A stretch of DNA of 64,000 nt from positions 32,001 to 96,000 of the IMG/VR virus record IMGVR_UViG_3300017917_001562; one strand, given 5' to 3'. Below, piece after piece: positions 9,043 through 28,864 of this stretch. Made by a program: the position numbers and the translations under genes. The DNA comes from a virus. The notes under the pieces were generated by a model that was not told the DNA's origin, ran no database searches, and saw only the letters and a list, made by a program, of their open reading frames with translations. Numbering within the stretch: the stretch's first letter is position 1; every line of letters starts with the position of its first letter.

Positions 9043-9384
9043 TTATCCCCATTTTAATTTGAAATAAGTAATATCTTCTGCTCGAAGTTTAGCACTTATG
9101 GCAAATTGGTATCCAAATGTTACGAGATCAGCATGTTTGTGCCAGACTGGAGGTTCTATAGCATGTTCCATGATCCATTTACCTGCTTCACTTTGTTGCC
9201 ATTGCCATAACGGTTCTCCTGCGTACAATACAGGATCTTCGACATCGCTCATTTGAAATTTGTGAACTACAATTTCTTTAATTTCTTGTATTTTAACTTG
9301 ACCGTCGACCGTTACTTCGCGGAAACTGTGCTCCAACTTGTAAGGTTCACTAATTAAATCATATTGGTTTTTAGTGTAAGCCAT
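9043..9384 (-). CDS. Small protein, orphan member of the LxW C-terminal family
   Basis: Ends EDITYFKLKWG. Confidence 0.65.
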   Translation of the reverse strand: MAYTKNQYDLISEPYKLEHSFREVTVDGQVKIQEIKEIVVHKFQMSDVEDPVLYAGEPLWQWQQSEAGKWIMEHAIEPPVWHKHADLVTFGYQFAISAKLRAEDITYFKLKWG

Positions 9385-9385
9385 A

Positions 9386-9958
9386 TTATATTTCTTTAAT
9401 TTGAAACCCTTTAAAAACACCGCGAGACGGTATTTTCCCATTTCTCATTCTGTTAATAGTTGCATGGGTGTTAGGGATACTAACATTGAATTCTTTTGCA
9501 ATTTCTTTTAATCCCGCCACTATTTTAGTGGAGCCATTAGGATAATAAATTATATATTTTTTTGTATAGGAAAGTAACGATGGATCTATATTTTTAATCC
9601 AACTATTTTCTCCACTGTGCGCTTCTCTATTTTTTTGTATAGTTTCTTGTTTATGAGTTTTACCGAAGAATCCGTTTTTATCACCTGTCCTTGATTTAGC
9701 AGATTCTGACAATCTTCTTTTACCTTCGGGAGTCCAATTTTTTGGTCCTAATAATTTCATATAATTTGCTTCTTCGACGCCTATTTGTTTAGATAACGCC
9801 AAGTAAGCAATATGATCAAATTTATTGCCATATTGTTCATATAATTTTTTATGTGCTTCTGCGTGTTCTTCTATTGTTAGTTTAACTAAATTTTCGGGAT
9901 TATCTAAACCACCCATATGTTTAGGTACAATATGATGTATATGATAAATGGGCTTCAT
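9386..9958 (-). CDS. Free-standing HNH homing endonuclease with NUMOD3 motif
   Basis: HHIVPKHMGGLDNPENLVKLTIEEHAEAH and NGFFGKTHK motifs. Confidence 0.85.
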   Translation of the reverse strand: MKPIYHIHHIVPKHMGGLDNPENLVKLTIEEHAEAHKKLYEQYGNKFDHIAYLALSKQIGVEEANYMKLLGPKNWTPEGKRRLSESAKSRTGDKNGFFGKTHKQETIQKNREAHSGENSWIKNIDPSLLSYTKKYIIYYPNGSTKIVAGLKEIAKEFNVSIPNTHATINRMRNGKIPSRGVFKGFQIKEI

Positions 9959-13046: not shown

Positions 13047-13517
13047 TCAAATTTCATCTTGTTTCTTGCAAAGTTCGCAAACAGTTAAAAATTGTTCGTA
13101 GGCATTACGAACTGCGGGATGAGTCATCAGCTTATCTGCTTCTTGTTCTAACGCCTTAATACCAGCTTCGGCAATATCACGGATGCTGTTGTAATGTACA
13201 TAACGACCTCGTTCGCCCATTACTTTCTTAAAGTGTTCCCATGCGTCATATTGTTCGTTAGTTAGTACTCTATTATTTTCTTCATCACGCTTCATGTCTG
13301 AAGCATCACCTATTGCCTTACACATTTTATCAGCTGCAACACGACCTGCGGCAATCATGGCTGCATAGTTTGGATTAATGTTGTAGAAGGTGCTTTGCCC
13401 ACCCGGATAACTCACGATCAAATGTGTACCTTTTGGAAGGGCATCCATTAGTGTTTGATCATATTCTGAAACAGGCTTATACCGTCGACCTACTTTTTCA
13501 TAGAATATCTTCTTCAT
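13047..13517 (-). CDS. Hypothetical protein
   Basis: 156-aa ORF. Confidence 0.7.
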   Translation of the reverse strand: MKKIFYEKVGRRYKPVSEYDQTLMDALPKGTHLIVSYPGGQSTFYNINPNYAAMIAAGRVAADKMCKAIGDASDMKRDEENNRVLTNEQYDAWEHFKKVMGERGRYVHYNSIRDIAEAGIKALEQEADKLMTHPAVRNAYEQFLTVCELCKKQDEI

Positions 13518-13794
13518 TGTCTTTACCGTTGCTGTGAGTGTTACGATGGTTGTCTATGTCTTGAAACAGTTTCTTTTCTTGGGCTGTTGGTTCTTTAAAT
13601 GTTTTTCTGGGATTACTACACATTACACATTTAGGATCTCCACAGTTCATAGCGTGGTGTTTGGCAAATCTGTGTCCTTGATGTTGATGTTCAGGTGCAC
13701 CATGCGACTTGGCAATTTTTTGTTGTTTATGAATAGCAGTTTCTTCTTGATGTAGTCGCTTGCTGTGTTTGAACTTGTCGTTGGGATCACTCAT
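13498..13794 (-). CDS. His/Cys-rich hypothetical protein
   Basis: CGDPKCVMCSNPR; RBS and sigma70 promoter upstream. Confidence 0.7.
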   Translation of the reverse strand: MSDPNDKFKHSKRLHQEETAIHKQQKIAKSHGAPEHQHQGHRFAKHHAMNCGDPKCVMCSNPRKTFKEPTAQEKKLFQDIDNHRNTHSNGKDNEEDIL

Positions 13795-13811: not shown

Positions 13812-13840
13812 ATTATATAGCCAAAACGGTTTTATGTCAA
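13812..13840 (-). promoter_or_regulatory. Sigma70-type promoter
   Basis: TTGACA-17 bp-TATAAT on the minus strand. Confidence 0.75.
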
Positions 13841-13842
13841 TG

Positions 13843-14130
13843 TTACATCCATTTTAATCTAAACCAATTGGCATCTTCTGGAGATTCAAAAGCTATTTTT
13901 ACGCCTTGAATTTTATATTCACTTTGGCAATTTTCTTTTAACCAATCTCTTTTTTGTTGACATAAATTATCTGTGACCATATGATTGGTAACATGAACAA
14001 CATATCCGGACCCAAGAGCATTGTTTACCAATGTCCACCCCGATACTTCTACCCAAACACTAAAGTCTATTTCGTATTGAACCTGCTCAGCTAGTTGATT
14101 TAGAATGTGTTCTTGTATATTATTGTTCAT
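13843..14130 (-). CDS. Array member (ends ANWFRLKWM)
   Basis: Family C-terminal motif. Confidence 0.75.
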   Translation of the reverse strand: MNNNIQEHILNQLAEQVQYEIDFSVWVEVSGWTLVNNALGSGYVVHVTNHMVTDNLCQQKRDWLKENCQSEYKIQGVKIAFESPEDANWFRLKWM

Positions 14131-14132
14131 TG

Positions 14133-14354
14133 TTAACTCCATCTAAGACAAAAAGCTGTCAGTGTCGGTTTATCGGGCAACACCACAGTCATACCTTGGA
14201 CCTTACTTTTATTTTGTTTACACCACACTTGTAGATCATCGTAGTGTATATTCCAGTATGCTATGTCTGACAGCACAATCAACAATTCGCCGCCTGTTAC
14301 TAGCGTATCAGGAATAATGAATCTTCGTCGGTGACCGTTGTCAAGTAAACTCAT
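14133..14354 (-). CDS. Array member (ends TAFCLRWS)
   Basis: Family C-terminal motif. Confidence 0.75.
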   Translation of the reverse strand: MSLLDNGHRRRFIIPDTLVTGGELLIVLSDIAYWNIHYDDLQVWCKQNKSKVQGMTVVLPDKPTLTAFCLRWS

Positions 14355-14710
14355 CTTACTAAGTTTAACATGGTTTGATATTGTTGCCAAAGATCTTGAA
14401 GTCCGGGATGTTGATGTCTAAGCCTAGTTTCTTCTTCTTGCTTATATACAATTTCTTGAATATCTCGCTTTAGGTCTACTGCATGTTGCTTTTCTTCCAA
14501 CCATTGATCGTGTTCCATTAAAGCACGAAAACGATCTTCAGGCATGTGAATTTCTACACAAGTAAGATCCTCATATGGATTATTGTTATAAATGTTTGGA
14601 TCACTGGCCCATATTTTATAATCAACTCGTCTTACTCGTCTATGCATTTTTGTACTAGGCACTACATAAGCATCATATTTGTAACAAAACTCTGTAAAAT
14701 CTTTTGTCAT
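14351..14710 (-). CDS. Hypothetical protein, not a family member, within the array
   Basis: ORF coupled to its neighbours. Confidence 0.7.
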   Translation of the reverse strand: MTKDFTEFCYKYDAYVVPSTKMHRRVRRVDYKIWASDPNIYNNNPYEDLTCVEIHMPEDRFRALMEHDQWLEEKQHAVDLKRDIQEIVYKQEEETRLRHQHPGLQDLWQQYQTMLNLVR

Positions 14711-14711
14711 T

Positions 14712-14996
14712 TTAACTCCATTTTAATAACCATAAAGCTATATCGTCTTTATGTGTAAATCCCCACCATTCTTGTTGATTATGAAAGTCGGAACTGTAAG
14801 ACAGAATTTGGCCGCGGCAATGCAAATTACACCAAGTCCAGTATTCGTTGGAAAATTTAACAGGTTTAACACAAACAAACCATTTACTGGGCTTGTGCGG
14901 TTTAACTTGTTCTGGCACCCAAAGTCCACTATCATCGTCACCAAGTCCTGGGCGAATATCGTTCCAAAATTCTTTGAACTGCTTTCGATTTATCAT
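14712..14996 (-). CDS. Array member (ends ALWLLKWS)
   Basis: ATGA-coupled start; family motif. Confidence 0.75.
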   Translation of the reverse strand: MINRKQFKEFWNDIRPGLGDDDSGLWVPEQVKPHKPSKWFVCVKPVKFSNEYWTWCNLHCRGQILSYSSDFHNQQEWWGFTHKDDIALWLLKWS

Positions 14997-15205
14997 GACC
15001 ACTTCAACAATGTTAACAAGGCTTTTTTCTCGTCTGCGAAATGCCAAGTAGTACCATAAGTGGGGCTCCTTAGATTCATATCATATGTACGCCACCAGTC
15101 TTGTTTAAACTCACCTACATAAGTTTCTAACCACTCATTAAATGATACATCTGGTACTAATGAACGATGAAGACCCTTGAGTTGACTTTGATGTATTTTA
15201 TTCAT
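14993..15205 (-). CDS. Array member (ends LLTLLKWS)
   Basis: Family motif and junction repeat. Confidence 0.75.
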   Translation of the reverse strand: MNKIHQSQLKGLHRSLVPDVSFNEWLETYVGEFKQDWWRTYDMNLRSPTYGTTWHFADEKKALLTLLKWS

Positions 15206-15207
15206 AC

Positions 15208-15438
15208 TTACGCCCATCGCAGTTTCCATATTACATATAGTTCTGGAGTCAAGTATAAAGCAGTATTACTGTCGGGATCATCTCGCATTGGTCGCCATAA
15301 ATCAGGATCTTGCACTCGGATCCACTCAAACATACCCTCGGGGGTCCTAAATCCTTCAAAGCTTGGATCATCAAAACAATATGTTTTGTATCCGTGTGTA
15401 AAAAGTTCGTAACGACCGTTGCGTGGCAAATGACTCAT
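15208..15438 (-). CDS. Array member (ends VIWKLRWA)
   Basis: Family motif. Confidence 0.75.
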   Translation of the reverse strand: MSHLPRNGRYELFTHGYKTYCFDDPSFEGFRTPEGMFEWIRVQDPDLWRPMRDDPDSNTALYLTPELYVIWKLRWA

Positions 15439-15647
15439 CGGTTTCCTTTTAAAATAAACCACACAGCATCCTGCTCACGCTCAAACCACACTGTTCGACT
15501 ACCGTAGTAGAGATAGAACTTACCAGGCGAATCCATTAACTGCAATTCACGCTTGAGTTGGGCATAGTTCCAATTTAGGTTGATTGTGCGTAGAACAGGA
15601 TGCCAGTGCTGTTGCCGAACCTTTTTATCTTTGTTCCAATATTTCAT
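15435..15647 (-). CDS. Array member (ends AVWFILKGNR)
   Basis: WFEREQDAVWFILK. Confidence 0.75.
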   Translation of the reverse strand: MKYWNKDKKVRQQHWHPVLRTINLNWNYAQLKRELQLMDSPGKFYLYYGSRTVWFEREQDAVWFILKGNR

Positions 15648-15871
15648 GACCACCTTAATATAAACCAACTCATATCTTTACGAGCATCCGGATAATCTAA
15701 AAAATAAAAATTAATTAAATCGTGTGTAATAGTATTACCATCACTGTGATATTGATTAGTAATGTAATGTGGACAGTTTTTCTTTGCCCATTGAATAGCA
15801 CTATACAAATCAAGTTTACTACGGTCTACTGTTATGTAGTTATCAGTAATCTTCATATGCCAGTTGTCCAT
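15644..15871 (-). CDS. Array member (ends SWFILRWS)
   Basis: Family motif and junction repeat. Confidence 0.75.
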   Translation of the reverse strand: MDNWHMKITDNYITVDRSKLDLYSAIQWAKKNCPHYITNQYHSDGNTITHDLINFYFLDYPDARKDMSWFILRWS

Positions 15872-16083
15872 CAACTCCACCTTAACAAAAATGCTGTATA
15901 ATCTTCTTCATGCTCAAATACCGCAGTAACAAACTTGTTGTCTTTGTCCTCGACCATTTTGCAGCCAAACTCCTGTAACCATTTTTTTCGGCTTTCTTCT
16001 AGTCCCAACGACTGAACACCAAGTGTTTCACGCCACGCACGACGAAACATTGAATGATGCTTTTTTAAATCTACTTCAATCAT
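15871..16083 (-). CDS. Array member (ends TAFLLRWS)
   Basis: Family motif. Confidence 0.75.
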   Translation of the reverse strand: MIEVDLKKHHSMFRRAWRETLGVQSLGLEESRKKWLQEFGCKMVEDKDNKFVTAVFEHEEDYTAFLLRWS

Positions 16084-16138
16084 GACCACCTCAATGCTAG
16101 CATTGTAGCATGATTTGCATATTTTCGTCTAACAAATT

Positions 16139-16221
16139 GATAAATAAAAATGCGAGTCGCGATGCGTCAACATCCACCCGCCCTAACAGTTGAAAAGGAA
16201 CTATCAGCATGAATATTTATT
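16139..16221 (+). promoter_or_regulatory. TAAATA late-type promoter plus structured leader of endonuclease gene
   Basis: Same architecture as 49839-49918, with compensatory stem changes. Confidence 0.65.
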
Positions 16222-16583
16222 CCCCGGCACGACCCCCATCTGGGTATTATGTTTACGCATATATAAGATCAAAAGATTCGAAAACAGGTAAAGCAGGGAC
16301 TCCGTATTACATTGGTAAAGGCAAGGGCAATCGAGCCACTCGACGTCACGGAAAAAACCCTATTCCAGATTTTGATTTCATAGCAATATGTGAAGAAAAT
16401 TTAACTGAAATTGGTGCATTAGCGATTGAACGATTCCTTATACGTGTTTGGGGGAGAAAAGATATCGGTACCGGAATTTTGTTAAACAGAACAGACGGCG
16501 GGGATGGGACATCGGGTAGATCAGCAGAGTCAATCTGCACCCAAACTGCGCCACCAAGGTCTACCCATCTTGGATCATTATGA
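16209..16583 (+). CDS. GIY-YIG-like homing endonuclease, probably C-terminally truncated
   Basis: YYVYAY...YYIGKG, E-rich helix, [10 protein letters not shown]; after ~16520 it reads into the antisense of the host gene. Confidence 0.7.
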
Positions 16584-16731
16584 TCTACAATTAAAGGGCC
16601 CACAGGCCACCTTACTTTGATAACAACACCAGGAACAAACCTCCACCAAAGTTTTTGCCAAATGTTTAATCCGCAAGGCAAATATCTGCCAGACGGCAAT
16701 TGAAATAAACTTTTAATTTCCCACTTAGCCA

Positions 16732-17133
16732 TTATGAATATTTCAATGCTATCATTACGGCATCTTGCTCATTGTTAGTTGCTACAAACACTTTATCCTC
16801 ACCGCCTAGTTCGTTTACTGTCCATTCCCAATCAGTAGAAGGCTCACACATAACACGATGAAACTCCCAAACAGCATTTTCACCTAAAGCACGAGCAGGC
16901 CAAAAATAATGTTTTGTATCTTCTCGCACGGTCCACCCAAACGGTTGTTCTAAGTTAAAAAACTTGTTAGGATCAACGATAACAATATGTTTAAAATTTC
17001 TAAAAATATCTTTGATACGAGTAGCACGGACATTAACGGTTTGTTCATACCATGCCTTATACTCACGCTCTGCTTTTGTATAACCAGTTGTGCGAGTAAG
17101 ATACCAATCTTTGATATTGTCGAATAAAATCAT
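16732..17133 (-). CDS. Array member (ends VMIALKYS)
   Basis: EQDAVMIALKYS. Confidence 0.75.
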   Translation of the reverse strand: MILFDNIKDWYLTRTTGYTKAEREYKAWYEQTVNVRATRIKDIFRNFKHIVIVDPNKFFNLEQPFGWTVREDTKHYFWPARALGENAVWEFHRVMCEPSTDWEWTVNELGGEDKVFVATNNEQDAVMIALKYS

Positions 17134-17136
17134 GGT

Positions 17137-17376
17137 TTATTCTGCTAATACTTCAAACAGTTCAGCATACTGTGTTTCGGGTTCATCAACGAATCCAGTA
17201 TAGACCCATACTCTGCGACAATAAACTTTTTTAAGCCACACCCAACGGTTGTTAATAGTTTTATGCGGCAACAACACAAATGTTTCAACCCAGTCGTGTT
17301 CTACCGCGGTTATGTCGCCTATGTTTGGGATAAACATTGCTCCTCTAACTATTTCTTTAAATAGGGAAAAACTCAT
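17137..17376 (-). CDS. Hypothetical protein, not a family member, within the array
   Basis: Starts at a junction ATGA; W-x-LP-K...W pattern resembles 28864-29121. Confidence 0.7.
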   Translation of the reverse strand: MSFSLFKEIVRGAMFIPNIGDITAVEHDWVETFVLLPHKTINNRWVWLKKVYCRRVWVYTGFVDEPETQYAELFEVLAE

Positions 17377-17594
17377 GCCCACCTTAACGCTAATAAAATG
17401 TAAATTTTTTCATGAACATCAAATACATTATAGTTGATATGCCATTTTTCGTCAATGTTTTGAAACCATTGTTTATCTTCCTGCTCACAGAAAGATGTTC
17501 TTAACCAAATACTAACTTCTTTTTTACAAGATATAGTATACCAAGATTCATTATTAACTATAGCCTTAGTCCTTACTTTGAAGTTAGATTTCAT
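17373..17594 (-). CDS. Array member (ends ILLALRWA)
   Basis: Family motif and junction repeat. Confidence 0.78.
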   Translation of the reverse strand: MKSNFKVRTKAIVNNESWYTISCKKEVSIWLRTSFCEQEDKQWFQNIDEKWHINYNVFDVHEKIYILLALRWA

Positions 17595-17839
17595 ACCCAC
17601 CTCAACGCAAACATAGTATATTTTTTCTCATCTACCACTGCAACCTGCACAACTTCGTATCCGTGCCTACCATATATATCTTGTTTAGGACATAGATCTA
17701 ATCTGAGCCCGGCTGTTTGTTCAATATGATACTTAAACCCAAGCATACGGTCCTCTCCAGAACTGGGCCAATCTGGGTCATATTCCATATAACATTTGTT
17801 TAGCAAACGATTTACGGATTTTGTATCTATAAATCTCAT
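17591..17839 (-). CDS. Array member (ends TMFALRWV)
   Basis: Family motif and junction repeat. Confidence 0.78.
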   Translation of the reverse strand: MRFIDTKSVNRLLNKCYMEYDPDWPSSGEDRMLGFKYHIEQTAGLRLDLCPKQDIYGRHGYEVVQVAVVDEKKYTMFALRWV

Positions 17840-18048
17840 GAGCTCCACCTCAATGCAAACATAGTTGCATCCTTGCTATTGCGGAAGTAATAATCCACAC
17901 CCTTCATTGAGGGCACTCGATTCCAGCGACCTTTAAACGGGCCCATGTTTTCGCCTAGCCATTCCTCAATCTTGTAATGCCCGGCGTGATCCATGGGCAT
18001 AGAGATAGGAATCTTTGCTGGCCAAATTTCTTTCTTTAGTTGTCTCAT
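17836..18048 (-). CDS. Array member (ends TMFALRWSS)
   Basis: Family motif and junction repeat. Confidence 0.78.
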   Translation of the reverse strand: MRQLKKEIWPAKIPISMPMDHAGHYKIEEWLGENMGPFKGRWNRVPSMKGVDYYFRNSKDATMFALRWSS

Positions 18049-18335
18049 GACCACCTCAACTCTAAGAATGTTACCATTTCCGGAGGAACTAAGAATACAC
18101 TTTCAAACCATAGGTACCATGTGAACTTTTCTCGTGAGAAATGTTCGTTCATCCACACAACCTCTGGACCTAATACATCTACGCAAACATAATCTTCATA
18201 TCCCATGGGAGGGGCACGGCCAGTATCAACACGCGGCGGAATCAGGAATGTTGATTCATATTCGGCCAACCATTTAGCGTGAGCGGCTAGTTCGTTATCC
18301 GGTATCAGAGCAACACTTTGGAAATTTACTTTCAC
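18045..18335 (-). CDS. Array member (ends TFLELRWS), GTG start
   Basis: Family motif and junction repeat. Confidence 0.75.
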   Translation of the reverse strand: MKVNFQSVALIPDNELAAHAKWLAEYESTFLIPPRVDTGRAPPMGYEDYVCVDVLGPEVVWMNEHFSREKFTWYLWFESVFLVPPEMVTFLELRWS

Positions 18336-18565
18336 GACCACCTCAACATAAACCAAGTATACGCTTGTTCATCATAAAAGTCAATATACCTATCACCGTA
18401 ACCGCTTAACGGATTTATGGGTTTGGCTATCCAAAAGTTTGCCGACCAGTCCATGAGAGCATGATTGATTTCTTCCTCGCCAAAACTATCTGGTAAAAAG
18501 TTATACCACCATCTTGGGATTTCAGATGGATGGCGATCTTCTTCAAATATCTTTATTCTAATCAT
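18332..18565 (-). CDS. Array member (ends TWFMLRWS)
   Basis: Family motif and junction repeat. Confidence 0.78.
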   Translation of the reverse strand: MIRIKIFEEDRHPSEIPRWWYNFLPDSFGEEEINHALMDWSANFWIAKPINPLSGYGDRYIDFYDEQAYTWFMLRWS

Positions 18566-18771
18566 GACCACCTCAACACAAACATCATATAATCATCTAC
18601 ACGGCGAAATTCAAATACACCTTCACTAACATAACGCCAGTTCTGTTCCTTGAATCGTCCTCTACACCATTCCATCGCAGGCAACCAGCCCCAGTGCTCA
18701 TACTCCTTGTGTGCAGGTTGAGGCACACTTGCAATAATCCAACTGTTGATAGGATTTCTTGGCAATTTCAT
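18562..18771 (-). CDS. Array member (ends MMFVLRWS)
   Basis: Family motif and junction repeat. Confidence 0.78.
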   Translation of the reverse strand: MKLPRNPINSWIIASVPQPAHKEYEHWGWLPAMEWCRGRFKEQNWRYVSEGVFEFRRVDDYMMFVLRWS

Positions 18772-19022
18772 GACCACCTCAGAATAAACATACTAGCGTC
18801 TTTTTCTTTTTCAAACATCCAGATGCTACCTCGACCTTGATGGTTACCTTGTAAGTTTTCTCTGCACCATTTTTTGATTTCGTATATCTGCGTCTCGTGC
18901 ATCCTTGCGGGCCACTTTATCTCAACCTTTGTATAGCCTAGTTTAATCATCATGTCGCACATGATTTCCCAGTCTGTTTCTTCCTGGAGGGTTTTTGCAA
19001 GGTCTTGTTTTATTATTGTCAT
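18768..19022 (-). CDS. Array member (ends SMFILRWS)
   Basis: Family motif and junction repeat; resembles 13843-14130. Confidence 0.78.
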   Translation of the reverse strand: MTIIKQDLAKTLQEETDWEIMCDMMIKLGYTKVEIKWPARMHETQIYEIKKWCRENLQGNHQGRGSIWMFEKEKDASMFILRWS

Positions 19023-19240
19023 GACCACCTCAACATAAACAAAGTAGCATGTGCGGGATCAGAAAACCACATTACATATCCAGAGCCGGGTTCTAGTCGC
19101 CAGTAGTGTTCGCTAGCTGGTTTTCCATATTGACAGTTATTAGGACTACCAAAAGTTTTTAAACACCATGCCCACCAAACAGGCAGGCCTTGTTGATTAT
19201 ATACATGTCTATGTTTCATGGGTACAATTACAATATTCAT
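19019..19240 (-). CDS. Array member (ends TLFMLRWS)
   Basis: Family motif and junction repeat. Confidence 0.78.
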   Translation of the reverse strand: MNIVIVPMKHRHVYNQQGLPVWWAWCLKTFGSPNNCQYGKPASEHYWRLEPGSGYVMWFSDPAHATLFMLRWS

Positions 19241-19482
19241 GACCACCTCAACGCAAATAACATAGCCTTTTTTTCGTCTACGATAGAGATCATAGTATCA
19301 CCTAACCTTGCGCTATACACTCCCCACTCATCGCCCGCTTCAGGCTCAATATCAATGCCGTCAGGCCAACTATTTTTTAACCAACGGCCACCGGGTCCTA
19401 CATTGTTGTATAACCAATGTTCTAACTCTACAAACTGTATCCGGTGTTTGCTCATAATGGTAGTAGCATCAAAGTTAATCAT
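19237..19482 (-). CDS. Array member (ends MLFALRWS)
   Basis: Family motif and junction repeat. Confidence 0.78.
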   Translation of the reverse strand: MINFDATTIMSKHRIQFVELEHWLYNNVGPGGRWLKNSWPDGIDIEPEAGDEWGVYSARLGDTMISIVDEKKAMLFALRWS

Positions 19483-19727
19483 GACCACCTCAGCGTTGTA
19501 AGCATCATGTCTTGCTCAAATTCAAAATAAAATCGGCCGGTTGATTCACAAAAACTATATCGGCCATGGCTGGGATAATTGTTACACCAGTTTACAATAG
19601 CTGCTTCTTTAACGAGCCATTCTAAAGTACCAGTATCGTAACTATCGAACTCTTCCTTATTCCAAAAGTTAGTAGAGTCTACAACATATTTGAAATTTTC
19701 TATGTCTAAGTTGGCTATTTTCTTCAC
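19479..19727 (-). CDS. Array member (ends MLTTLRWS), GTG start
   Basis: Family motif and junction repeat. Confidence 0.75.
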   Translation of the reverse strand: MKKIANLDIENFKYVVDSTNFWNKEEFDSYDTGTLEWLVKEAAIVNWCNNYPSHGRYSFCESTGRFYFEFEQDMMLTTLRWS

Positions 19728-19936
19728 ACCCACCTCAACAGTGCAAACATTCTATCTTTTTCATTTGTAATATACCACAAGTCAACACCATTAAGTGTGC
19801 CCTGGTATTCTGTTTCTATAGAATTTTTTTCACACCACTTATGAAAGTTTATTCTTTGCTGTGAGCTAACAGTAAAGCCCCGCGGATCACCTACTAATTT
19901 TACTCTGCCCTTTTCTGCAAAAACTTTAGTGGTCAT
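19724..19936 (-). CDS. Array member (ends MFALLRWV)
   Basis: Family motif and junction repeat. Confidence 0.78.
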   Translation of the reverse strand: MTTKVFAEKGRVKLVGDPRGFTVSSQQRINFHKWCEKNSIETEYQGTLNGVDLWYITNEKDRMFALLRWV

Positions 19937-20151
19937 GCCCACCTCAGTGCAAACCACTCTTTGTTTTCTCTAACTTGAAATATGTATCCGTTAGAGCCTG
20001 AACTTAGAAGAAAGTATTCTACTTTGTTTTCGCGCATCCAACCGTAGATGTCAAGCCACTCCTGAAATGTGCGAACAAGGTAAGTAGGGTAACCTGCCCA
20101 ACCTGGGTAGCTAGTAGATTCGACTTTCATATTCATTGTGTTATCAATCAT
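19933..20151 (-). CDS. Array member (ends EWFALRWA)
   Basis: Family motif and junction repeat. Confidence 0.78.
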   Translation of the reverse strand: MIDNTMNMKVESTSYPGWAGYPTYLVRTFQEWLDIYGWMRENKVEYFLLSSGSNGYIFQVRENKEWFALRWA

Positions 20152-20482
20152 GAAAATCGTAATCGTAGCAGTGTCTAATTTCGTGTCCTAAATTTGAAGT
20201 GCTGGTGTTGGTACCTGTAATTACAGTACACTGATCACCTCGCCAAACAGCACAACCAACAATTCTATTTTTACCAAATCTACCATTGGTGCTTTTATCA
20301 CAGATTTGTTGCAGCTCTTGGTCAGACACTTGACGCCAAGTAATAGTTCTTACTCTTGTTTGTGATTTAGCAGTACTGATGTGTTCGGCGTTGTATTCCC
20401 ATGCCTTAACGGGGTTGACAGGTTGAGCACTACAACCAGATACTGCTGCAACAATCGCAAAAACTAAAGACATTTTTTTCAT
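20144..20482 (-). CDS. Putative lipoprotein with HExxH motif
   Basis: Signal peptide with VSGC lipobox; LGHEIRHC. Confidence 0.6.
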   Translation of the reverse strand: MKKMSLVFAIVAAVSGCSAQPVNPVKAWEYNAEHISTAKSQTRVRTITWRQVSDQELQQICDKSTNGRFGKNRIVGCAVWRGDQCTVITGTNTSTSNLGHEIRHCYDYDFHD

Positions 20483-20483
20483 G

Positions 20484-20708
20484 TTAATTCCACCTTAACA
20501 AAAACATTGTCAAATCTTTTTGATTTTTAAATTCAAACATATCGTAGGCAATCCTGTAACCACAATGATTTTCCCTGCACCATTCTACCATTTCAGCTAT
20601 AGGATAGCCTAAATAATGACCTTCTTGATCAAGTATAAATTCATCCACCGAAATTTTTACAGCAAGCCTAAGCCTTGGATCTGGTTCAATGGCGTAGGCT
20701 TTGCTCAT
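20484..20708 (-). CDS. Array member (ends TMFLLRWN)
   Basis: Family motif; start overlaps the vWA gene stop. Confidence 0.78.
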   Translation of the reverse strand: MSKAYAIEPDPRLRLAVKISVDEFILDQEGHYLGYPIAEMVEWCRENHCGYRIAYDMFEFKNQKDLTMFLLRWN

Positions 20709-21985
20709 TATGCTTTGGCCAATTCCTTGGCTCGTTCATAAATTGCCCAAACACCAAAGGGAGGTTCTGCTTGCTCGTTGCCTTTGATAATGAATACAGT
20801 ATCGCAGTATTCGCTGTCACCCCACTCACCAAAAGGCATACCGTCAGTGAACATGATAAACTTCTTAGGTTGAATATCATTTTCCTTCATGTATTCCCAA
20901 TTAGCCATAAAGTCAGTACCACCACCACCTTGGGGCTCATAGGTAAGAATGTCCTCTAGTGATTCTGAACTGTAAACTTGGTGATTATACACTGCGGTGT
21001 CAAAACTCCACACTTGAATCTTGTACTCGTCATAGGCTTCCATAATGCCTTTGATCTCAGCCATAAAAGCCTTGATGTCTTCCTCGCCAATAGAACCCGA
21101 AGTGTCAATGGCAATACAAACATCAATCTGTTGACCCGGGATCATACCAGGCATAACAGCATCCAAGTGCCAGCTACGGCGTGAAGGGCGCAACCAAGTA
21201 AAGTCGTTTTTAACGGTGCTTTGGATTTGTTGTTCCAACAGCTCACGCCAGTTAACTACAGGCCTAGTCAAGTCTTTGATCAGACGCTTAACACCTGACG
21301 GCAAATTGCTGGCGCCTGTGGCCTGTGCGGCCTGTAGCAGTGCTTCGCGGATTTCGTCTTTGATGGCCTGTCGTTCTTCTTTGCTGAGACGGGGACGACC
21401 TTTGCCTTCTTTCTCGTCACCATCTTCGTCGCTACTGCCGTTGTCACCATCACCGTCCAAGTGCTCGTCTAACAGTTGATCCATCAAATCGCTGATGTCA
21501 ATTTTTTCTGCATTTTCATAAAGGTCGTCGTAGACTTCTTCAGCACTCCAACCTTTGTATTTGACATCATACAGGCAAGGGGTAATTTTGTCACCAATCC
21601 GTTGCTCAATCAAATCACTGTTAACACAATAGTCAGCGGCACAATTAAACAAACGGCGATCGCGGTCGCCATTACGACCCATATGGTCATAGACATTGTG
21701 CAGAACTTCGTGGCCAAACAAGAACTCAAGTTCTTTGGGTTTCAGTTTATTAACGAACTCAGTGTTGTAATAAAATTTACGACCATCGGTTGCAGCAGTA
21801 CCAAGCCAACTGTCTGCATTAACCAATTGCAGTCTGGTAGCAAGGTTACCAAAGAATGGTGCCTTAAGCAAGAGACCGATACGAGCAGTAGTCAATTTTT
21901 CACGCACTGCACGATCCAAAGCAGGATCGGTATTGTCAGTGAGACGACCTGCGATGTCTTTTTGTTTACTGTCTGATGTAGCCAT
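20708..21985 (-). CDS. Metallopeptidase-vWA domain protein (DUF2201-type), MoxR partner
   Basis: TAATDG and HEVLH; IDTSGS MIDAS, GGGGTDF, FTDG. Confidence 0.88.
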   Translation of the reverse strand: MATSDSKQKDIAGRLTDNTDPALDRAVREKLTTARIGLLLKAPFFGNLATRLQLVNADSWLGTAATDGRKFYYNTEFVNKLKPKELEFLFGHEVLHNVYDHMGRNGDRDRRLFNCAADYCVNSDLIEQRIGDKITPCLYDVKYKGWSAEEVYDDLYENAEKIDISDLMDQLLDEHLDGDGDNGSSDEDGDEKEGKGRPRLSKEERQAIKDEIREALLQAAQATGASNLPSGVKRLIKDLTRPVVNWRELLEQQIQSTVKNDFTWLRPSRRSWHLDAVMPGMIPGQQIDVCIAIDTSGSIGEEDIKAFMAEIKGIMEAYDEYKIQVWSFDTAVYNHQVYSSESLEDILTYEPQGGGGTDFMANWEYMKENDIQPKKFIMFTDGMPFGEWGDSEYCDTVFIIKGNEQAEPPFGVWAIYERAKELAKA

Positions 21986-22010: not shown

Positions 22011-22039
22011 ATTATAACACACTTGCGAATTTTTGTCAT
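22011..22039 (-). promoter_or_regulatory. Early sigma70-like promoter with AATTC spacer motif
   Basis: ATGACA-aaaattcgcaagtgtgt-TATAAT. Confidence 0.6.
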
Positions 22040-22052
22040 TAATACCAAAGTA

Positions 22053-22346
22053 TTACAACCATTTAAGTGTAAACAGTTCTAGTTCTTGATTTGTTTTAAG
22101 ATAAATTAATGGAGTATCGTATTTAATATCCTCTAATCTATAAGACCAAGATTGGTTCCTAGTAAATTTTGCATGACTTAAATGAAGGTTGAGTTGGACA
22201 CCCATACCCCATATTTCATTGCACCAATGACACCATTCTACAAATTTAGGAATTCTAGAGTCAAAGGGTTCGTGCAGTTCAATCCTGTATGCAAAATGCC
22301 CATATCCTCCATGACGGCGATCTAATTTTACAACCTTGGCGGGCAT
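22053..22346 (-). CDS. Array-family member between the ATPase and vWA genes (ends ELFTLKWL)
   Basis: Family motif; WCNEIWG. Confidence 0.7.
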   Translation of the reverse strand: MPAKVVKLDRRHGGYGHFAYRIELHEPFDSRIPKFVEWCHWCNEIWGMGVQLNLHLSHAKFTRNQSWSYRLEDIKYDTPLIYLKTNQELELFTLKWL

Positions 22347-22409: not shown

Positions 22410-23519
22410 TTACTTGCTGTTGGCGGCTACAATGTATTTGCCAAATCGCTTATGGAACTCGTCGAAATGTTTCAACTTGCCAGGAATGAAAGGCAGATTG
22501 TAGGTAGTCAGTGCAACACGAGCACCCATAACAGTCAATTCGGTAGTGAAATTGTCCATCATGTAACGGAAGAAGAAATCTGCCATACTGTTAAATTTCT
22601 CGTCAGGCTTGCCGTTATTTTTTAGCACATGATCCTGAAGTTCATAGCAGAGGTTCACAGTTAGTGAGTACATGGCTGAAATTTCTTTGACCTTAAGATC
22701 AGTGACTTTGCCGTCAAGAATGTCAATAGGCTTAGGCAACTGACCTGCAACCTTGCGGTGCGCCATAAACTTAACTGCAACACCTTCGCCCACAGCACCT
22801 GAAATCAAGTCAGTAAGTTCGCTGTCAGTGCAGTCATTGTCCTCCAACAGTTCACTGACAAAAGTCCACGAACGAGGAGTAGCGAACGCACGGCTTGAAC
22901 TACGGGGGTCAAAGTCGTAAAGGTCTTGTTTAGCAAAACCAATATAACCAATCACATCTGAACTGATGCGGTTAATGGTAGCCCATTGCTCCCACGATTC
23001 GTGATCAACTCGCATCTCCAAGTGAACGAAGCGGTTAGCCAACGGAGCAGGCATACGATAAGTAACGCCTTTATCAGTTTCACGGTTACCTGCGGCAATC
23101 ACAACCACATTGTCAGGCAGTGTATACTTGCCAATACGGCGGTTCAAAACCAGCTGATAAGCTGCGGCCTGGATGCTGGGTGCAGCACTGTTCATTTCAT
23201 CAAGGAACAAAACAACCACAGGATACTGTTTGGCCAGTTCTTCACTGGGCAAGTCGATTGGGGGAGCCCAATCCATCAAACCATTGTCTTTGTTGTAATA
23301 AGGAATACCACGCAGGTCAGTGGGTTCCATCTGTGCCAAACGAAGGTCAATCATAAGACCGCCCATTTCTTCAGCAATACTAGCAACCAGTTCGGACTTG
23401 CCGATGCCTGGAGGACCCCACAGGAACAGGGGTCGTTTTTTCTTAAAACACTTGGTAATGGCACGACGAGCGGTCAGTGCGGTTACAGTGCGATTTTCAG
23501 TAATTGAGTCTTTCGACAT
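22410..23519 (-). CDS. MoxR-like AAA+ ATPase
   Basis: GPPGIGKS, LFLDEMN, AAGN, LANRF and TPRSW motifs. Confidence 0.9.
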   Translation of the reverse strand: MSKDSITENRTVTALTARRAITKCFKKKRPLFLWGPPGIGKSELVASIAEEMGGLMIDLRLAQMEPTDLRGIPYYNKDNGLMDWAPPIDLPSEELAKQYPVVVLFLDEMNSAAPSIQAAAYQLVLNRRIGKYTLPDNVVVIAAGNRETDKGVTYRMPAPLANRFVHLEMRVDHESWEQWATINRISSDVIGYIGFAKQDLYDFDPRSSSRAFATPRSWTFVSELLEDNDCTDSELTDLISGAVGEGVAVKFMAHRKVAGQLPKPIDILDGKVTDLKVKEISAMYSLTVNLCYELQDHVLKNNGKPDEKFNSMADFFFRYMMDNFTTELTVMGARVALTTYNLPFIPGKLKHFDEFHKRFGKYIVAANSK

Positions 23520-27624: not shown

Positions 27625-28275
27625 TTATTCATTTGTAGTCAATATGCTTTTAACTTTTGGTAAAATGAAATCTGCCCAAGCTAGATGTGCCTCTGCACCA
27701 TAATGATAATATTTTGGATTAGCAGGTTTAAATCCTGCATTTTCCAACCAAAAATAATAGGTAAAATTTTTGTCGTAAGGGTCGATGTAACTTTTACCCC
27801 AATCATATTTAGATTTATTTTGTCTTATTGTATAAAAGAAATGACTATAGCAGTTAAAAAACAAGTGAGGAATATGTTTTATTTTTTGATGAAATTCCCA
27901 AATTTTATCGTGTGCTGTAAATTCATTGAGCCATTGTTGTTCAGGAACACTTTGGTCAATTACCCATTGTTTATACTTGTATTGTAATTCTAAAGGAACA
28001 GTATCATACCCACTAGCAGTAATATTGTAAGCCTCATCGTTCCAATACCAAGTTTCTCGCTCCCAAGTGCTCCACCCAATGATTAGAAAATCTGGTGTGT
28101 TGGATTCTAAATAACTTAAAGTTCTTTGTATAATGCTGTCATTGCTACAGCCTTGAACAGCTGCACACACATATTCATAACCTAATGCATCTGCTATGTG
28201 TTTACCATAGGCAAAATTTGGACCACCGGCATCATGCCCTGCACTGTGGCTGTCACCGTCTACATATAGTTTCAT
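27625..28275 (-). CDS. SGNH/GDSL-hydrolase-like protein
   Basis: GDSHSAG, G-SN, and HYG near the C-terminus. Confidence 0.55.
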   Translation of the reverse strand: MKLYVDGDSHSAGHDAGGPNFAYGKHIADALGYEYVCAAVQGCSNDSIIQRTLSYLESNTPDFLIIGWSTWERETWYWNDEAYNITASGYDTVPLELQYKYKQWVIDQSVPEQQWLNEFTAHDKIWEFHQKIKHIPHLFFNCYSHFFYTIRQNKSKYDWGKSYIDPYDKNFTYYFWLENAGFKPANPKYYHYGAEAHLAWADFILPKVKSILTTNE

Positions 28276-28502
28276 ACATATTTCAGTGTTATAAATGAAG
28301 CAAGACTTTCGTCGTCTAGACTTATATTAATATTGCCGCTATAAAAGCCACGATCAATGGCCCAATGCTTGCCACCTACCCTAGAGTGTAAATAGTAAGT
28401 TCTTACACCAACATTTTGTTCTAAATAACATTGAACTTCGCGTTCGTGCTTTGACGGAATAGTAAATGTTACTTTGAATTTTTGTTCAAGTACACTAGGC
28501 AT
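28272..28502 (-). CDS. Orphan array-family member (ends ASFITLKYV)
   Basis: YLEQNVG...W; C-terminal motif; ATGA coupling. Confidence 0.65.
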   Translation of the reverse strand: MPSVLEQKFKVTFTIPSKHEREVQCYLEQNVGVRTYYLHSRVGGKHWAIDRGFYSGNINISLDDESLASFITLKYV

Positions 28503-28864
28503 TAACTTACCTCTGTGCGGCCGCCACCCAAATCAGTTTTCTTCACACCACTGGTCGGCCTAGGATTGTTTGCTTCATATTGTTCAAATGTTTCAAGCAC
28601 AACATTACGACAAACATCTTGGAACCAACGGTCCACAATGTCTGCATCTGTTTTGCCTTGGTATCCTGCACGAAGTAGTTTGGTAATGAATTGATCATTC
28701 CAATCAAGCTCAAACGCACCTTGCCCTACATTTTCGGGATCTAAATCAATGCTGAGAATATTAACATAAGGCTCATTACGCTTGGTTGCTTCTGCCTTGG
28801 GATCTTTTACTTTTACTGTTAATTTACCTGCTGTCTTTTTAGCAGGAGTCTTTGCTGTTGCCAT
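28502..28864 (-). CDS. Hypothetical protein
   Basis: FELDWND...IVDRWF. Confidence 0.7.
   Translation of the reverse strand: MATAKTPAKKTAGKLTVKVKDPKAEATKRNEPYVNILSIDLDPENVGQGAFELDWNDQFITKLLRAGYQGKTDADIVDRWFQDVCRNVVLETFEQYEANNPRPTSGVKKTDLGGGRTEVS

Follow-up and report, generated by a model that had tools for sequence, protein, structure and literature searches.

A hypervariable island of tandem mini-domain genes, chained by a recurrent coding junction, in an uncultured jumbo phage

Organisation of the array

The window analysed here, a stretch of 64,000 nucleotides from the 108-kb genome of an uncultured giant phage, carries at positions 13843-20708 a 6.9-kb insert made of 26 head-to-tail minus-strand open reading frames (ORFs), recovered by ORF listing and a tail search (Table 1). 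A preliminary description of this DNA had assigned about 23 of some 26 genes to one paralog family, coupled or nearly so, and both statements hold: tails, profile matches and homologues in relatives place 23 of the 26 ORFs in the family (the other three being unrelated), and neighbouring genes are joined by ATGA, TAATG or TGATG overlaps, or separated by gaps of at most 3 nt, throughout the array save at an endonuclease insertion. The tail [hydrophobic]-x-[LIVMT]-[RK]-[WY]-x(0-2)-stop ends 21 array ORFs, and an external profile matches 18 array genes, with no other significant match across the 108-kb genome. Pairwise similarity between members is weak (13-24 bits), N-terminal extensions and overall charge differ from copy to copy, and isoelectric points span 4.6 to 10.0. 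Three further family members lie outside the array.

Table 1. Genes and sequence elements of the array and its surroundings, in descending coordinates.
Feature	Position	Strand	Evidence and remarks
Family member outside the array	28272..28532		
Single family member, tail ELFTLKWL, between MoxR and vWA genes	22053..22346	-	hhalign 96.5%, E 1e-9 (from orthologue alignment); uncoupled to downstream gene (~65-nt gap)
Candidate sigma-70-like promoter, ATGACA-17-TATAAT with TG	22011..22039	-	11/12 consensus; upstream of vWA gene
DUF2201 metallopeptidase-like/vWA backbone protein	20708..21985	-	stop overlaps start of first array gene (TAATG)
Member 1, tail MFLLRWN	20484..20708	-	external profile E 2e-13
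Non-family predicted lipoprotein, 112 aa, ending GHEIRHCYDYDFHD	20144..20482	-	no family match; homologues 54% identical inside arrays of L142 and L143
Member 2, tail WFALRWA	19933..20151	-	tail and profile
Member 3, tail FALLRWV	19724..19936	-	tail and profile
Member 4, tail LTTLRWS	19479..19727	-	tail and profile
Member 5, tail LFALRWS	19237..19482	-	tail and profile
Member 6, tail LFMLRWS	19019..19240	-	tail and profile
Member 7, tail MFILRWS	18768..19022	-	first structure-modelled member
Member 8, tail MFVLRWS	18562..18771	-	tail and profile
Member 9, tail WFMLRWS	18332..18565	-	tail and profile
Member 10, tail FLELRWS, divergent body, GTGA start overlap	18045..18335	-	detected solely by the window's own profile
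Member 11, tail MFALRWSS	17836..18048	-	external profile E 7e-20
Member 12, tail MFALRWV	17591..17839	-	tail and profile
Member 13, tail LLALRWA, divergent subfamily	17373..17594	-	hhalign to family 93.6%, E 2e-7
Non-family small gene, ends FEVLAE	17137..17376	-	70-73% conserved in relatives' arrays
Member 14, 133 aa, tail IALKYS	16732..17133	-	tail and profile; Lys-Tyr variant, ribosome-binding site not formed
Member 15, 5' part, interrupted by endonuclease insertion	16522..16732	-	
Truncated GIY-YIG-like homing-endonuclease ORF	16209..16583	+	phrog_15526, E 8e-16; GIY...YIG motifs visible
Member 15, 3' remnant RRKYANHATMLALRWS, ...HATMLALRWS*	16083..16130	-	TGA stop at 16080-16082
Member 16, tail AFLLRWS	15871..16083	-	tail and profile
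Member 17, tail WFILRWS	15644..15871	-	tail and profile
Member 18, altered tail WFILKGNR	15435..15647	-	by profile; next gene has AAGGA in place of the usual ribosome-binding site
Member 19, tail IWKLRWA, Arg codon CGA	15208..15438	-	tail
Member 20, tail LTLLKWS	14993..15205	-	tail and profile
Member 21, tail LWLLKWS	14712..14996	-	tail and profile
Non-family gene, 119 aa, ends MLNLVR	14351..14710	-	conserved in relatives' arrays
Member 22, tail AFCLRWS, Arg codon AGA	14133..14354	-	tail and profile
Member 23, final array gene, tail WFRLKWM	13843..14130	-	tail and profile
Perfect sigma-70 consensus match, TTGACA-17-TATAAT	13812..13840	-	directly after array, before backbone gene 13498-13794
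Distant single family member, tail YFKLKWG	9043..9384	-	hhalign 93.1%, E 3e-7

The array is bounded exactly by the vWA gene and by the promoter of the backbone gene that follows, and transcription through it may start at the candidate promoter upstream of the vWA gene; the sigma-70 calls are consensus matches only, such sites being as numerous in the region as expected by chance. The element that follows the array is shared with the array-bearing relatives L143 and L144, and a terminator hairpin occupies its site in the array-less L145, L147 and L166.

Member 15 is split. Its 5' part aligns to the first ~70 aa of intact homologues of ~125 aa in L142, L143 and L144, its 3' remnant likewise matches intact homologues in relatives, and the plus-strand GIY-YIG-like ORF, which is missing from L142-L144, takes the place of its middle; DNA homology within this member ends at about 16539. 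The remnant still provides GAGGTGGTCATGA to the downstream gene.

A divergent family with a common small fold

According to structure prediction, the shared tail forms the closing helix of a compact mini-domain, about 50-55 residues long and with the order beta-alpha-beta-beta-alpha, in which helix 1 bears W-C-x-E-N and the last helix E-x-D-A-x-x-F-x-L-R-W. This order is common to two AF2 models obtained from independent alignments and compared by element order: member 7 (pLDDT 88.6; H2-27, E31-34, H43-56, E61-64, E67-70, H73-83) and member 13, modelled from a subfamily-only alignment (pLDDT 90.8; E5-13, E16-23, H25-35, E43-47, E53-61, H62-72). In an alignment of 140 sequences W52 is invariant, and F70, F79, L81 and W83 nearly so; these are mostly aromatic or aliphatic residues, as would be expected of core positions. 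PDB fold searches return generic ferredoxin-like, ACT or RRM matches only (Z<=6.2), with none above Z 5 for the member 13 model, and the structural matches in BFVD are uncharacterised phage proteins, some of them from Atu_ph07. The N-terminal helix of member 7, like that of member 23, resembles a segment of the Gp23 capsid protein, and the close relatives P0004 and P0009 match positions 136-217 of PF07068 above the curated cut-off.

The fold persists where the tail varies. Members with Lys/Tyr variants (AAA TAT, AAA TGG) and uncoupled members retain the tail pattern, those of phage Phosso keep the fold with the tail Arg often substituted (by Thr or Ser), and those of PA5oct keep the W-C-x-E-N...F-x-F core with the tail replaced and Arg-Trp absent. 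When tails are removed, about 12 of 25 bodies outscore at least 199 of 200 shuffles in leave-one-out profile tests.

These results bear unequally on the preliminary description. Its central W-C-x-E-N-x-G...W pattern is real, given the invariance of W52, and an outcome that it had named as fatal, unrelated folds with nothing in common but codons imposed by ribosome binding, did not materialise, since the two models share a topology and bodies stripped of their tails are still recognisable. Its divergent family and expandable repertoire are supported. Its picture of a variable body whose unvarying C-terminal tag docks to a common partner is not: the tail is the final helix of a small conserved fold, the ribosome-binding site that overlaps its Arg-Trp part has a strong hold on these codons, as the AGG bias described below attests, and in PA5oct and Phosso the tail is replaced or its Arg often substituted, yet the fold is kept.

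A junction with several roles

At the junction between genes, TTG AGG TGG TCA TGA encodes the Leu-Arg-Trp end of the tail together with a Shine-Dalgarno sequence and an ATGA start overlap, and within the array core this DNA is nearly invariant (TTGAGGTGGTCATGA). Allowing up to one mismatch, GAGGTGGTCATGA occurs 11 times in the window against 0.06 expected, always on the minus strand and inside the array; this excess and the confinement of the external profile to the array indicate that the tail motif is not due to chance. Of 17 tails, 15 (88%) encode their Arg by AGG, against a genome-wide share of 8%. Among family genes in IMG/VR, whose loci were partly ascertained by the AGGTGGTCATGA pattern, AGG accounts for 79% of the Arg codons when tails are coupled and for 53% when they are not (p=0.02), uncoupled genes more often have Lys in their tails (p=0.003), and [RK][WYF] is retained in 71% of uncoupled genes (548 family genes).

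Three jobs may thus be assigned to the same 13-15 nt. Within the predicted fold they close the core helix of one protein, a role that we regard as established. From the sequence and the codon bias, they also appear to act as ribosome-binding site and overlapped start, in that the next gene would be served by its ATGA start and by GAGGTG, a complement of the 16S 3' end. Finally, they form a recombination joint for the gain, loss and replacement of whole cassettes, as shown between close relatives. Since any join made here damages neither the upstream protein nor translation of the downstream gene, the array is free to grow and to be reshuffled.

Turnover of the array among relatives

The phage is a T4-related jumbo phage from the MoxR-vWA group, and the array forms a hypervariable accessory island in its genome. 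Of 70 relatives that share both anchors of the MoxR-vWA...DHFR-TS backbone, about 65 lack any family gene at the array site, and arrays are carried there only by L140-L144 and L164. The flanks of the array are ~81% DNA-identical to the nearest relatives; DNA homology to them ends at 20706 and resumes at 13841, and inside the array only patchy blocks at 66-76% identity are found, one block of 57 nt reaching 89%. Even the closest relatives differ in array content, and between L142 and L143, which are 95% identical, seven of eight breakpoints fall in the junction motif. The repertoire is thus as expandable as had been proposed, its content changing fast between relatives rather than being invariant. 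As the array is missing from most relatives, it must be dispensable at this site, which would also fit selfish cassettes.

Single members are conserved at fixed backbone sites. Orthologues of the gene at 22053 are found between MoxR and vWA in about 25 relatives, and those of the gene at 9043 downstream of thymidylate synthase in more than 25, the latter being retained down to roughly 60-65% vWA identity.

Distribution of the family

The profile search suggested earlier was run and recovered 1583 clusters at 50% identity (E<=1e-3); in the best 150 of them (56-180 aa), the match reaches the C-terminus or nearly so. Searches of Pfam, PHROGs, NCBIfam and PDB sequences return nothing that matches the family, in agreement with the initial view that none of its members is characterised, and no description of an LRW-tail family was found in the literature searched; this mini-domain family is undescribed there and unnamed. 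It appears to be restricted to phages, the nearest ESM Atlas clusters being 100% viral, and also occurs in jumbo phages that have been cultured, namely Phosso, Atu_ph07 and PA5oct. The PA5oct members sit among DNA-metabolism genes, outside the defined early region of that phage (PMC7318152), which argues against a general "early" label for the family.

Selection and possible function

The array has a pooled dN/dS of about 0.30 and the flanks one of 0.11, both crude values from stop-to-stop frames, some of them spurious, with few substitutions. The lower-than-neutral ratio of the array suggests purifying selection, so that its products probably work as proteins. Known anti-defence families do not match them, and a search for a conserved partner gene accompanying the arrays found none. 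What, then, could such a set be for? We tentatively infer, at somewhat less than an even chance, that the proteins are small soluble binders which have diversified for host takeover or counter-defence: each binder would meet a different host or rival-phage target via its variable surface or N-terminal extension, and translational coupling would tie the expression of the whole set into a single chain.

Could the tail instead be a mere by-product of coupling, unrelated genes having converged on Leu-Arg-Trp because each next gene requires GAGGTGG upstream of its ATGA, with no protein family at all? The near-invariance of the junction DNA, the AGG bias of the tail Arg codon and the weak pairwise similarity would suit such a convergence, but W52, F70, E-x-D-A and F79 are conserved where no ribosome-binding site can impose them, leave-one-out profiles recognise about half of the tail-less bodies, the Lys/Tyr variants and uncoupled genes retain the pattern, PA5oct members hold the core without Arg-Trp, profile-profile matches reach 93-96%, and the two AF2 models have the same topology. 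This explanation is scarcely credible, and we consider it already refuted.

The cassettes may also be selfish or near-neutral passengers that are duplicated and passed between co-infecting phages via their self-contained junction, with little or no benefit to the phage. The absence of the array from most relatives, its variable content even among close ones with breakpoints at the junction, the endonuclease remnant that splits one member yet leaves the junction feeding the next gene intact, the excess of array over flank dN/dS and the fruitless search for a partner gene all lean this way. However, a dN/dS of about 0.3 still points to purifying selection on the proteins, the fold is maintained over more than 1500 diverged clusters, single members are held at fixed backbone positions over deep divergence, and no active-mobility enzyme lies in or beside the arrays except one degenerate endonuclease, making this reading rather unlikely. 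Still less probable is a mini-domain whose conserved polar residues (E-N in helix 1, E-x-D in helix 2 and the tail Arg) recognise a single ligand shared by all members (RNA, DNA, a nucleotide or one host protein), the copies tuning dosage or specificity in the manner of small RRM/ACT-like regulators. RRM, ACT, HPr and YajQ domains share its fold class (split beta-alpha-beta, ferredoxin-like), and the family consensus does conserve a few polar positions, but structural matches are all generic, the range of isoelectric points leaves no charge property common to members, hydrophobic positions are the most conserved, and where ribosome-binding-site pressure is lifted the tail Arg often gives way (to Lys, to Thr or Ser in Phosso) or is lost (PA5oct). 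Taken together, the whole explanation, a hypervariable island in which one mini-domain is repeated 23 times, joined by a three-job junction and, as its more tentative part, forming a repertoire of small binders, seems to us reasonably probable.

Comparison with known systems

Translational coupling through ATGA, TAATG or TGATG stop-start overlaps, where the upstream gene itself contains the Shine-Dalgarno sequence, is a textbook feature of operons. The array has the same stop/start overlap and a ribosome-binding site within the last codons of the upstream cistron; unlike in the textbook case, the codons that bear this site make up a structural motif conserved across a protein family; they recur more than 20 times and double as a recombination joint.

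T4-type phages have hyperplastic regions with PeSL (promoter-early stem-loop) cassettes (PMC2839356, PMC4122927), which are similar in that small accessory genes of unassigned function are acquired, lost or exchanged whole, by recombination at short conserved boundary repeats inside otherwise conserved T4-like genomes. PeSLs, however, lie between genes and combine a promoter with a terminator, so that each cassette is transcribed on its own (PMC2839356, PMC4122927), whereas the repeat of the array consists of coding sequence, ribosome-binding site and start overlap, its junctions have neither promoter nor stem-loop, and its genes belong to one family and are chained translationally.

In jumbo phages, small domains have undergone lineage-specific expansion, one example being the zinc ribbon of Bacillus phage G with about 35 copies (Iyer et al. 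2021, PMC7824862), and the passages of that paper searched here also describe for group 2.2 jumbo phages the MoxR-vWA pair that flanks this array; an LRW-tail family, or tandem chaining with a dual-use junction, was not met in them. Both cases involve many diverged copies of a small domain in a giant phage, with a different fold and no metal-binding motif in the array.

Integron gene-cassette arrays likewise hold promoterless cassettes behind an upstream promoter, swapped as units at a repeated boundary element. Unlike integrons, the array has no integrase and no attC hairpin, its boundary is coding and all its cassettes are homologous; exchange presumably takes place when phages co-infect a cell, through ordinary homologous or microhomology recombination.

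Composition of the array

Twenty-six head-to-tail minus-strand ORFs are listed in the array, and 23 of them belong to a single family of mini-proteins, which is exactly the count given in a preliminary description of this DNA (23 of about 26): 21 end in the tail hydrophobic-x-L-[RK]-[WY]-x-stop, one has an altered tail yet is matched by the family profile, and one has been split by the insertion of an endonuclease. The sequence GAGGTGGTCATGA, with one mismatch at most, occurs 11 times against 0.06 expected, always on the minus strand and always inside the array. The members are Trp-rich, and their isoelectric points span 4.6 to 10.0, because of which the idea of DNA mimics, a uniformly acidic family, is ruled out.

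In the split gene, a truncated GIY-YIG-like ORF took the place of the middle part (coordinates of this and other features are collected in the table). Both of the remaining pieces, on either side of the endonuclease ORF, match intact homologues of about 125 aa, devoid of endonuclease, in the related loci L142, L143 and L144, and the 3' remnant still supplies GAGGTGGTCATGA to the following gene.

Three array ORFs are unrelated to the family. One encodes a predicted lipoprotein that has homologues in L142 and L143 (54%) and no family match, and may belong to the envelope or serve in superinfection exclusion; its C-terminal end, GHEIRHCYDYDFHD, includes an HExxH-like motif. The other two small genes rank among the best-conserved of the array.

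Features of the window discussed in the text
Feature	Coordinates	Strand	Remarks
g9043, single family member	9043-9384	-	downstream of thymidylate synthase
HNH/NUMOD3 homing endonuclease	9386-9958	-	between thymidylate synthase and g9043
TTGACA-17-TATAAT	13812-13840	-	before backbone gene d13498
Array	13843-20708	-	26 ORFs
Array ORF with capsid-type motif	13843-14130	-	
Non-family gene	14351-14710	-	39-54% identical in relatives
Family gene with altered tail	15435-15647	-	
Region of split family gene	16080-16732	both	
3' remnant of split gene	16083-16130	-	
Truncated GIY-YIG-like homing-endonuclease ORF	16209-16583	+	phrog_15526
5' part of split gene	16522-16732	-	
Gene with tail AAA TAT (Lys-Tyr)	16732-17133	-	
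Non-family gene	17137-17376	-	70-73% identical in relatives
Divergent member, model 2	17373-17594	-	
Member with capsid-type motif, model 1	18768-19022	-	
Predicted lipoprotein, 112 aa, lipobox VSGC	20144-20482	-	inside array; non-family
DUF2201/vWA protein	20708-21985	-	adjoins array
Sigma-70-like site	22039-22011		
g22053, single family member	22053-22346	-	between MoxR and vWA
MoxR AAA+ ATPase	22410-23519		MoxR-vWA pair near array

One family and one predicted fold

Pairwise similarity between members is weak (13-24 bits). When F-x-L-R-W-x is removed, the left-out body nevertheless beats at least 199 of 200 shuffles in about 12 of 25 members, using leave-one-out profiles. A profile built from the 22 clearest members, and searched against a database of 1.84 billion representatives, retrieved 1583 clusters (50% identity, E<=1e-3); in the best 150 of these, of 56-180 aa, the match extends to, or nearly to, the C-terminus, and the family consensus reads W-C-x-E-N-x-G...W...F-x-F-x-x-E-x-D-A-x-x-F-x-L-R-W-S. 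Reciprocally, a profile made almost wholly of external proteins recovers 18 array genes, with no other significant match in the 108-kb genome.

Two AlphaFold2 models were compared by the order of their secondary-structure elements. Model 1, based on an external alignment, reaches a pLDDT of 88.6 and runs helix, strand, helix, strand, strand, helix. Model 2, for a divergent member and with the 18-sequence alignment of its own subfamily as sole input, reaches 90.8 and has a strand-helix-strand-strand-helix core with an extra N-terminal strand; this subfamily matches the main family at 93.6% (hhalign). Separate alignments thus lead to the same strand-helix-strand-strand-helix order, and the models show one predicted fold with variable surfaces. 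The preliminary description had proposed that divergent bodies carrying a common tail are paralogs, possibly sharing a fold, and both points hold: the wide search finds one real family, and a single fold is predicted.

A tail that is both protein and probable signal

In the array core, genes are joined by TTG AGG TGG TCA TGA, in which the stop and the next ATG overlap as ATGA. The complement of GAGGTG lies at the 3' end of 16S rRNA, and the spacing of GAGGTG to the ATG is suitable for a ribosome-binding site. In the tabulated junctions the stop and the next start overlap or stand a few nucleotides apart, and the coding sequence of the preceding gene contains a Shine-Dalgarno sequence, as in a translationally coupled operon. 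The tail would therefore act in ribosome binding and chain the translation of the array genes, and the array may be transcribed from the sigma-70-like site, no more than a consensus match, of a kind found at chance density in the region.

Of 17 Arg codons in tails, 15 are AGG, a codon that makes up 8% of those for Arg in the long ORFs of the genome, and the tail Leu is xTG in 15 of 24, against 27% genome-wide; on these figures, tail codon choice shows selection at the nucleotide level, and the bias fits selection for a Shine-Dalgarno sequence. Besides being a putative ribosome-binding site, the motif is a protein feature too. Some conservative tail variants (AAA TAT, AAA TGG) no longer form a ribosome-binding site, and g22053, a single member outside the array, retains L-K-W despite a distance of about 65 nt to the start of the next gene. 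In the IMG/VR loci, a biased sample since part of it was gathered using the DNA junction pattern, and whose figures are thus indicative rather than exact, the downstream start overlaps in 84% of 548 distinct family genes, and among 41 family genes with no start within 15 nt, [RK][WYF] is retained in 71%, AGG makes up 53% of Arg codons instead of 79% (p=0.02), and tail Lys is found in 34% instead of 12% (p=0.003).

A hypervariable island in a conserved backbone

The window covers bases 32001-96000 of an IMG/VR virus record (108.6 kb) judged 31% complete, a figure that corresponds to a jumbo phage genome of some 350 kb; no cultured phage with DNA near-identical to the window was found. Iyer et al. 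(PMC7824862) describe the MoxR-vWA gene pair in group 2.2 jumbo phages, to which the window phage is related, judging from its DUF2201/vWA protein and MoxR AAA+ ATPase; group 2.2 examples with the pair are Phosso (45% identity), PA5oct and Atu_ph07. Downstream of the array are found dihydrofolate reductase (DHFR), thymidylate synthase (TS) and an HNH endonuclease, the latter missing from this place in most relatives. The backbone conserved among fetched relatives reads MoxR-(g22053)-vWA-d13498-d13047-d11697-DHFR-TS-g9043.

Two family homologues are part of this backbone, g22053 (hhalign 96.5%, E 1e-9) and g9043 (93.1%, E 3e-7). Both are single, uncoupled and at fixed positions in dozens of relatives across deep divergence, and their stability contrasts with the volatility of the array.

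Through the vWA protein, 80 relatives were fetched. In about 65 of the 70 loci having both anchors, no family gene lies between vWA and the next backbone gene, and arrays occur at this site only in the closest relatives, L140-L144 (9-21 members; vWA 89-91% identical to that of the window), and in L164 (7 members). The array is dispensable at the vWA site. DNA homology of about 81% between the window and array-bearing relatives stops at 20706 and restarts at 13841, that is, at the array borders, and inside are only gene-sized patches at 66-76% and one short block of 57 nt at 89%. A match of at least 60% exists in L143 for only about 3 of 22 intact family genes, with a collinear skeleton of about 10 genes still recognisable. 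Array content, which the preliminary description saw as an expandable repertoire, indeed differs between relatives, down to complete absence. In the array-less L145, L147 and L166, the vWA stop is directly followed by a terminator hairpin, ATGCCACCTTCGGGTGGCAT, and a T run, while array-bearing relatives have a perfect TTGACA-17-TATAAT before d13498.

The way in which such differences arise can be followed between L142 and L143, about 95% identical over collinear blocks and differing by one cassette insertion, two replacements and one duplication. All but one of the eight resolved breakpoints lie inside TTGAG(G/A)TGG..ATGA or no more than about 12 nt beyond it, and the inserted cassette is bordered by a 26-nt repeat of the junction. 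Whole cassettes are exchanged at the junction.

Cultured carriers and capsid-protein pieces

Cultured carriers surfaced only by profile searches of whole records, tblastn with single members giving almost no matches. Sinorhizobium phage Phosso has 37 profile matches, Atu_ph07 has 7 and PA5oct 3, all annotated as hypothetical, and the same searches gave no family match in Escherichia phage CMSTMSU or Vibrio phage 2.275.O. The core persists in the members from PA5oct, whose tails are FKLQFGL, FGLIHK and the like, and L-T-W or L-S-W tails are frequent in Phosso, so the fold does not need the Arg-Trp spelling. The PA5oct members (EST35_0247, 0274, 0275) lack the 'ESI-MS/MS' note borne by virion proteins of that record, and sit among DNA-metabolism genes, outside the early region defined in PMC7318152. 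With 23 genes in the array and the Phosso matches, giant phages spend tens of genes on one tiny fold, and with three cultured carriers the question of its function is testable now.

A minority of members carry pieces of PF07068 (T4 Gp23) as N-terminal extensions, corresponding to positions 8-49, 136-217 and 305-354 of 376. The second piece is found in two external proteins above the curated cut-off, and the third in the Phosso ORF L139:1321-1701. Within the loci, some 2% of the family ORFs have capsid-type motifs, including two in the window, and external members with capsid-protein pieces are P0004, P0009, P0023, P0035 and P0040. Only short PF07068 pieces, and no full-length HK97-type capsid domain, were found in family members, and the 108-kb contig itself has no PF07068 match. 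The 8-49 piece holds G-V-Q-P-M, a block which may correspond to the Gol region. Gol lies within the first quarter of gp23, of which it is the most conserved part; it binds EF-Tu and activates the Lit protease (reviewed in PMC3014915).

Possible functions

What might such an array be for? Tentatively, its products are regarded here as a putative repertoire of small binding proteins, diversified to serve host takeover or counter-defence. The main rival, unlikely in our estimate, is that the genes are selfish or near-neutral cassettes, exchanged at their junctions and dispensable at the vWA site. In a crude pooled Nei-Gojobori comparison of L142 and L143, dN/dS is about 0.30 in the array against 0.11 in the flanks, with 118.5 synonymous and 152.5 non-synonymous differences in array ORFs; the array figure is probably no underestimate, given that frames were taken stop-to-stop with overlaps included, and the comparison shows a signature of purifying selection on the array proteins. 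Ranked after the cassette explanation, and rather improbable, is a regulator responding to a common ligand. Across 119 loci, no constant neighbour or partner gene of arrays was found, and the genes most often next to them belong to ordinary T4-like DNA metabolism or to unknown PHROGs.

Under a further reading, to which we give only a slim chance, the mini-domain would be a phage scaffold carrying a library of small inhibitors or decoys, shuffled by recombination and directed against bacterial immunity or rival phages. In the members with capsid-type extensions, the scaffold would display conserved stretches of the major capsid protein of T4-type phages, which could decoy capsid-sensing defence early on or block head assembly in competitors in a dominant-negative way, and the G-V-Q-P-M block may correspond to Gol as the trigger of the Lit abortive-infection protease. 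The junction, by uniting coding, ribosome binding and recombination, would then diversify this arsenal as a dedicated cassette system that needs no enzyme.

If the products are indeed takeover or counter-defence binders, the family would represent a large new source of small, stable and structurally uniform inhibitors, and also a marker of hypervariable islands in T4-related phage genomes.

Comparison with known families and systems

The statement in the preliminary description that no characterised family is known for these proteins is borne out. For 10 window and 140 family members, Pfam-A, PHROGs v4 and NCBIfam give no domain-level match, their only hits being PF07068 on the N-terminal extensions of 8 external members and stray singletons; profile searches of PDB sequences give none below E 0.5, Foldseek against PDB none at E<=0.001, and a literature search on the motif nothing relevant. 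In BFVD the matching entries bear the name 'uncharacterized protein' and come from uncultured Caudovirales, Atu_ph07 and BcepSauron, and in the ESM Atlas every one of the nearest clusters is viral and has no name. An exhaustive structural scan (VIA-align wide) returns only generic ferredoxin-like, ACT, RRM, HPr and YajQ sandwiches (Z<=6.2), the best matches (ACT, YajQ, RRM, HPr) scoring Z 5.5-6.2 for model 1 and below 5 for model 2, values that lie in the range of common arrangements. The secondary-structure order of both models fits a ferredoxin-like/RRM/ACT-type alpha-beta sandwich, which is a fold class and not a family. Bro-N/antirepressor rows for model 2 were weak and of low probability, and were set aside. 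The mini-domain fold is one without a name, a solved structure or a known function.

The closest known process is the PeSL-mediated shuffling that T4-type hyperplastic regions undergo (PMC2839356, PMC4122927). As there, a motif repeated at gene boundaries marks the indel and replacement breakpoints that separate close relatives, in this case seven of eight between L142 and L143. The junction is a 13-15 nt coding, ribosome-binding and start sequence and carries no PeSL-type promoter and stem-loop terminator; promoter-like and terminator-like sites occur within the array at chance density. Such arrays would offer a simple route to a gene library that can expand with no dedicated enzyme, since a single short sequence closes the protein fold, starts translation of the next gene and acts as recombination joint. 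Where the PeSL repeat is a promoter-terminator motif, that of the array is coding sequence combined with a ribosome-binding site.
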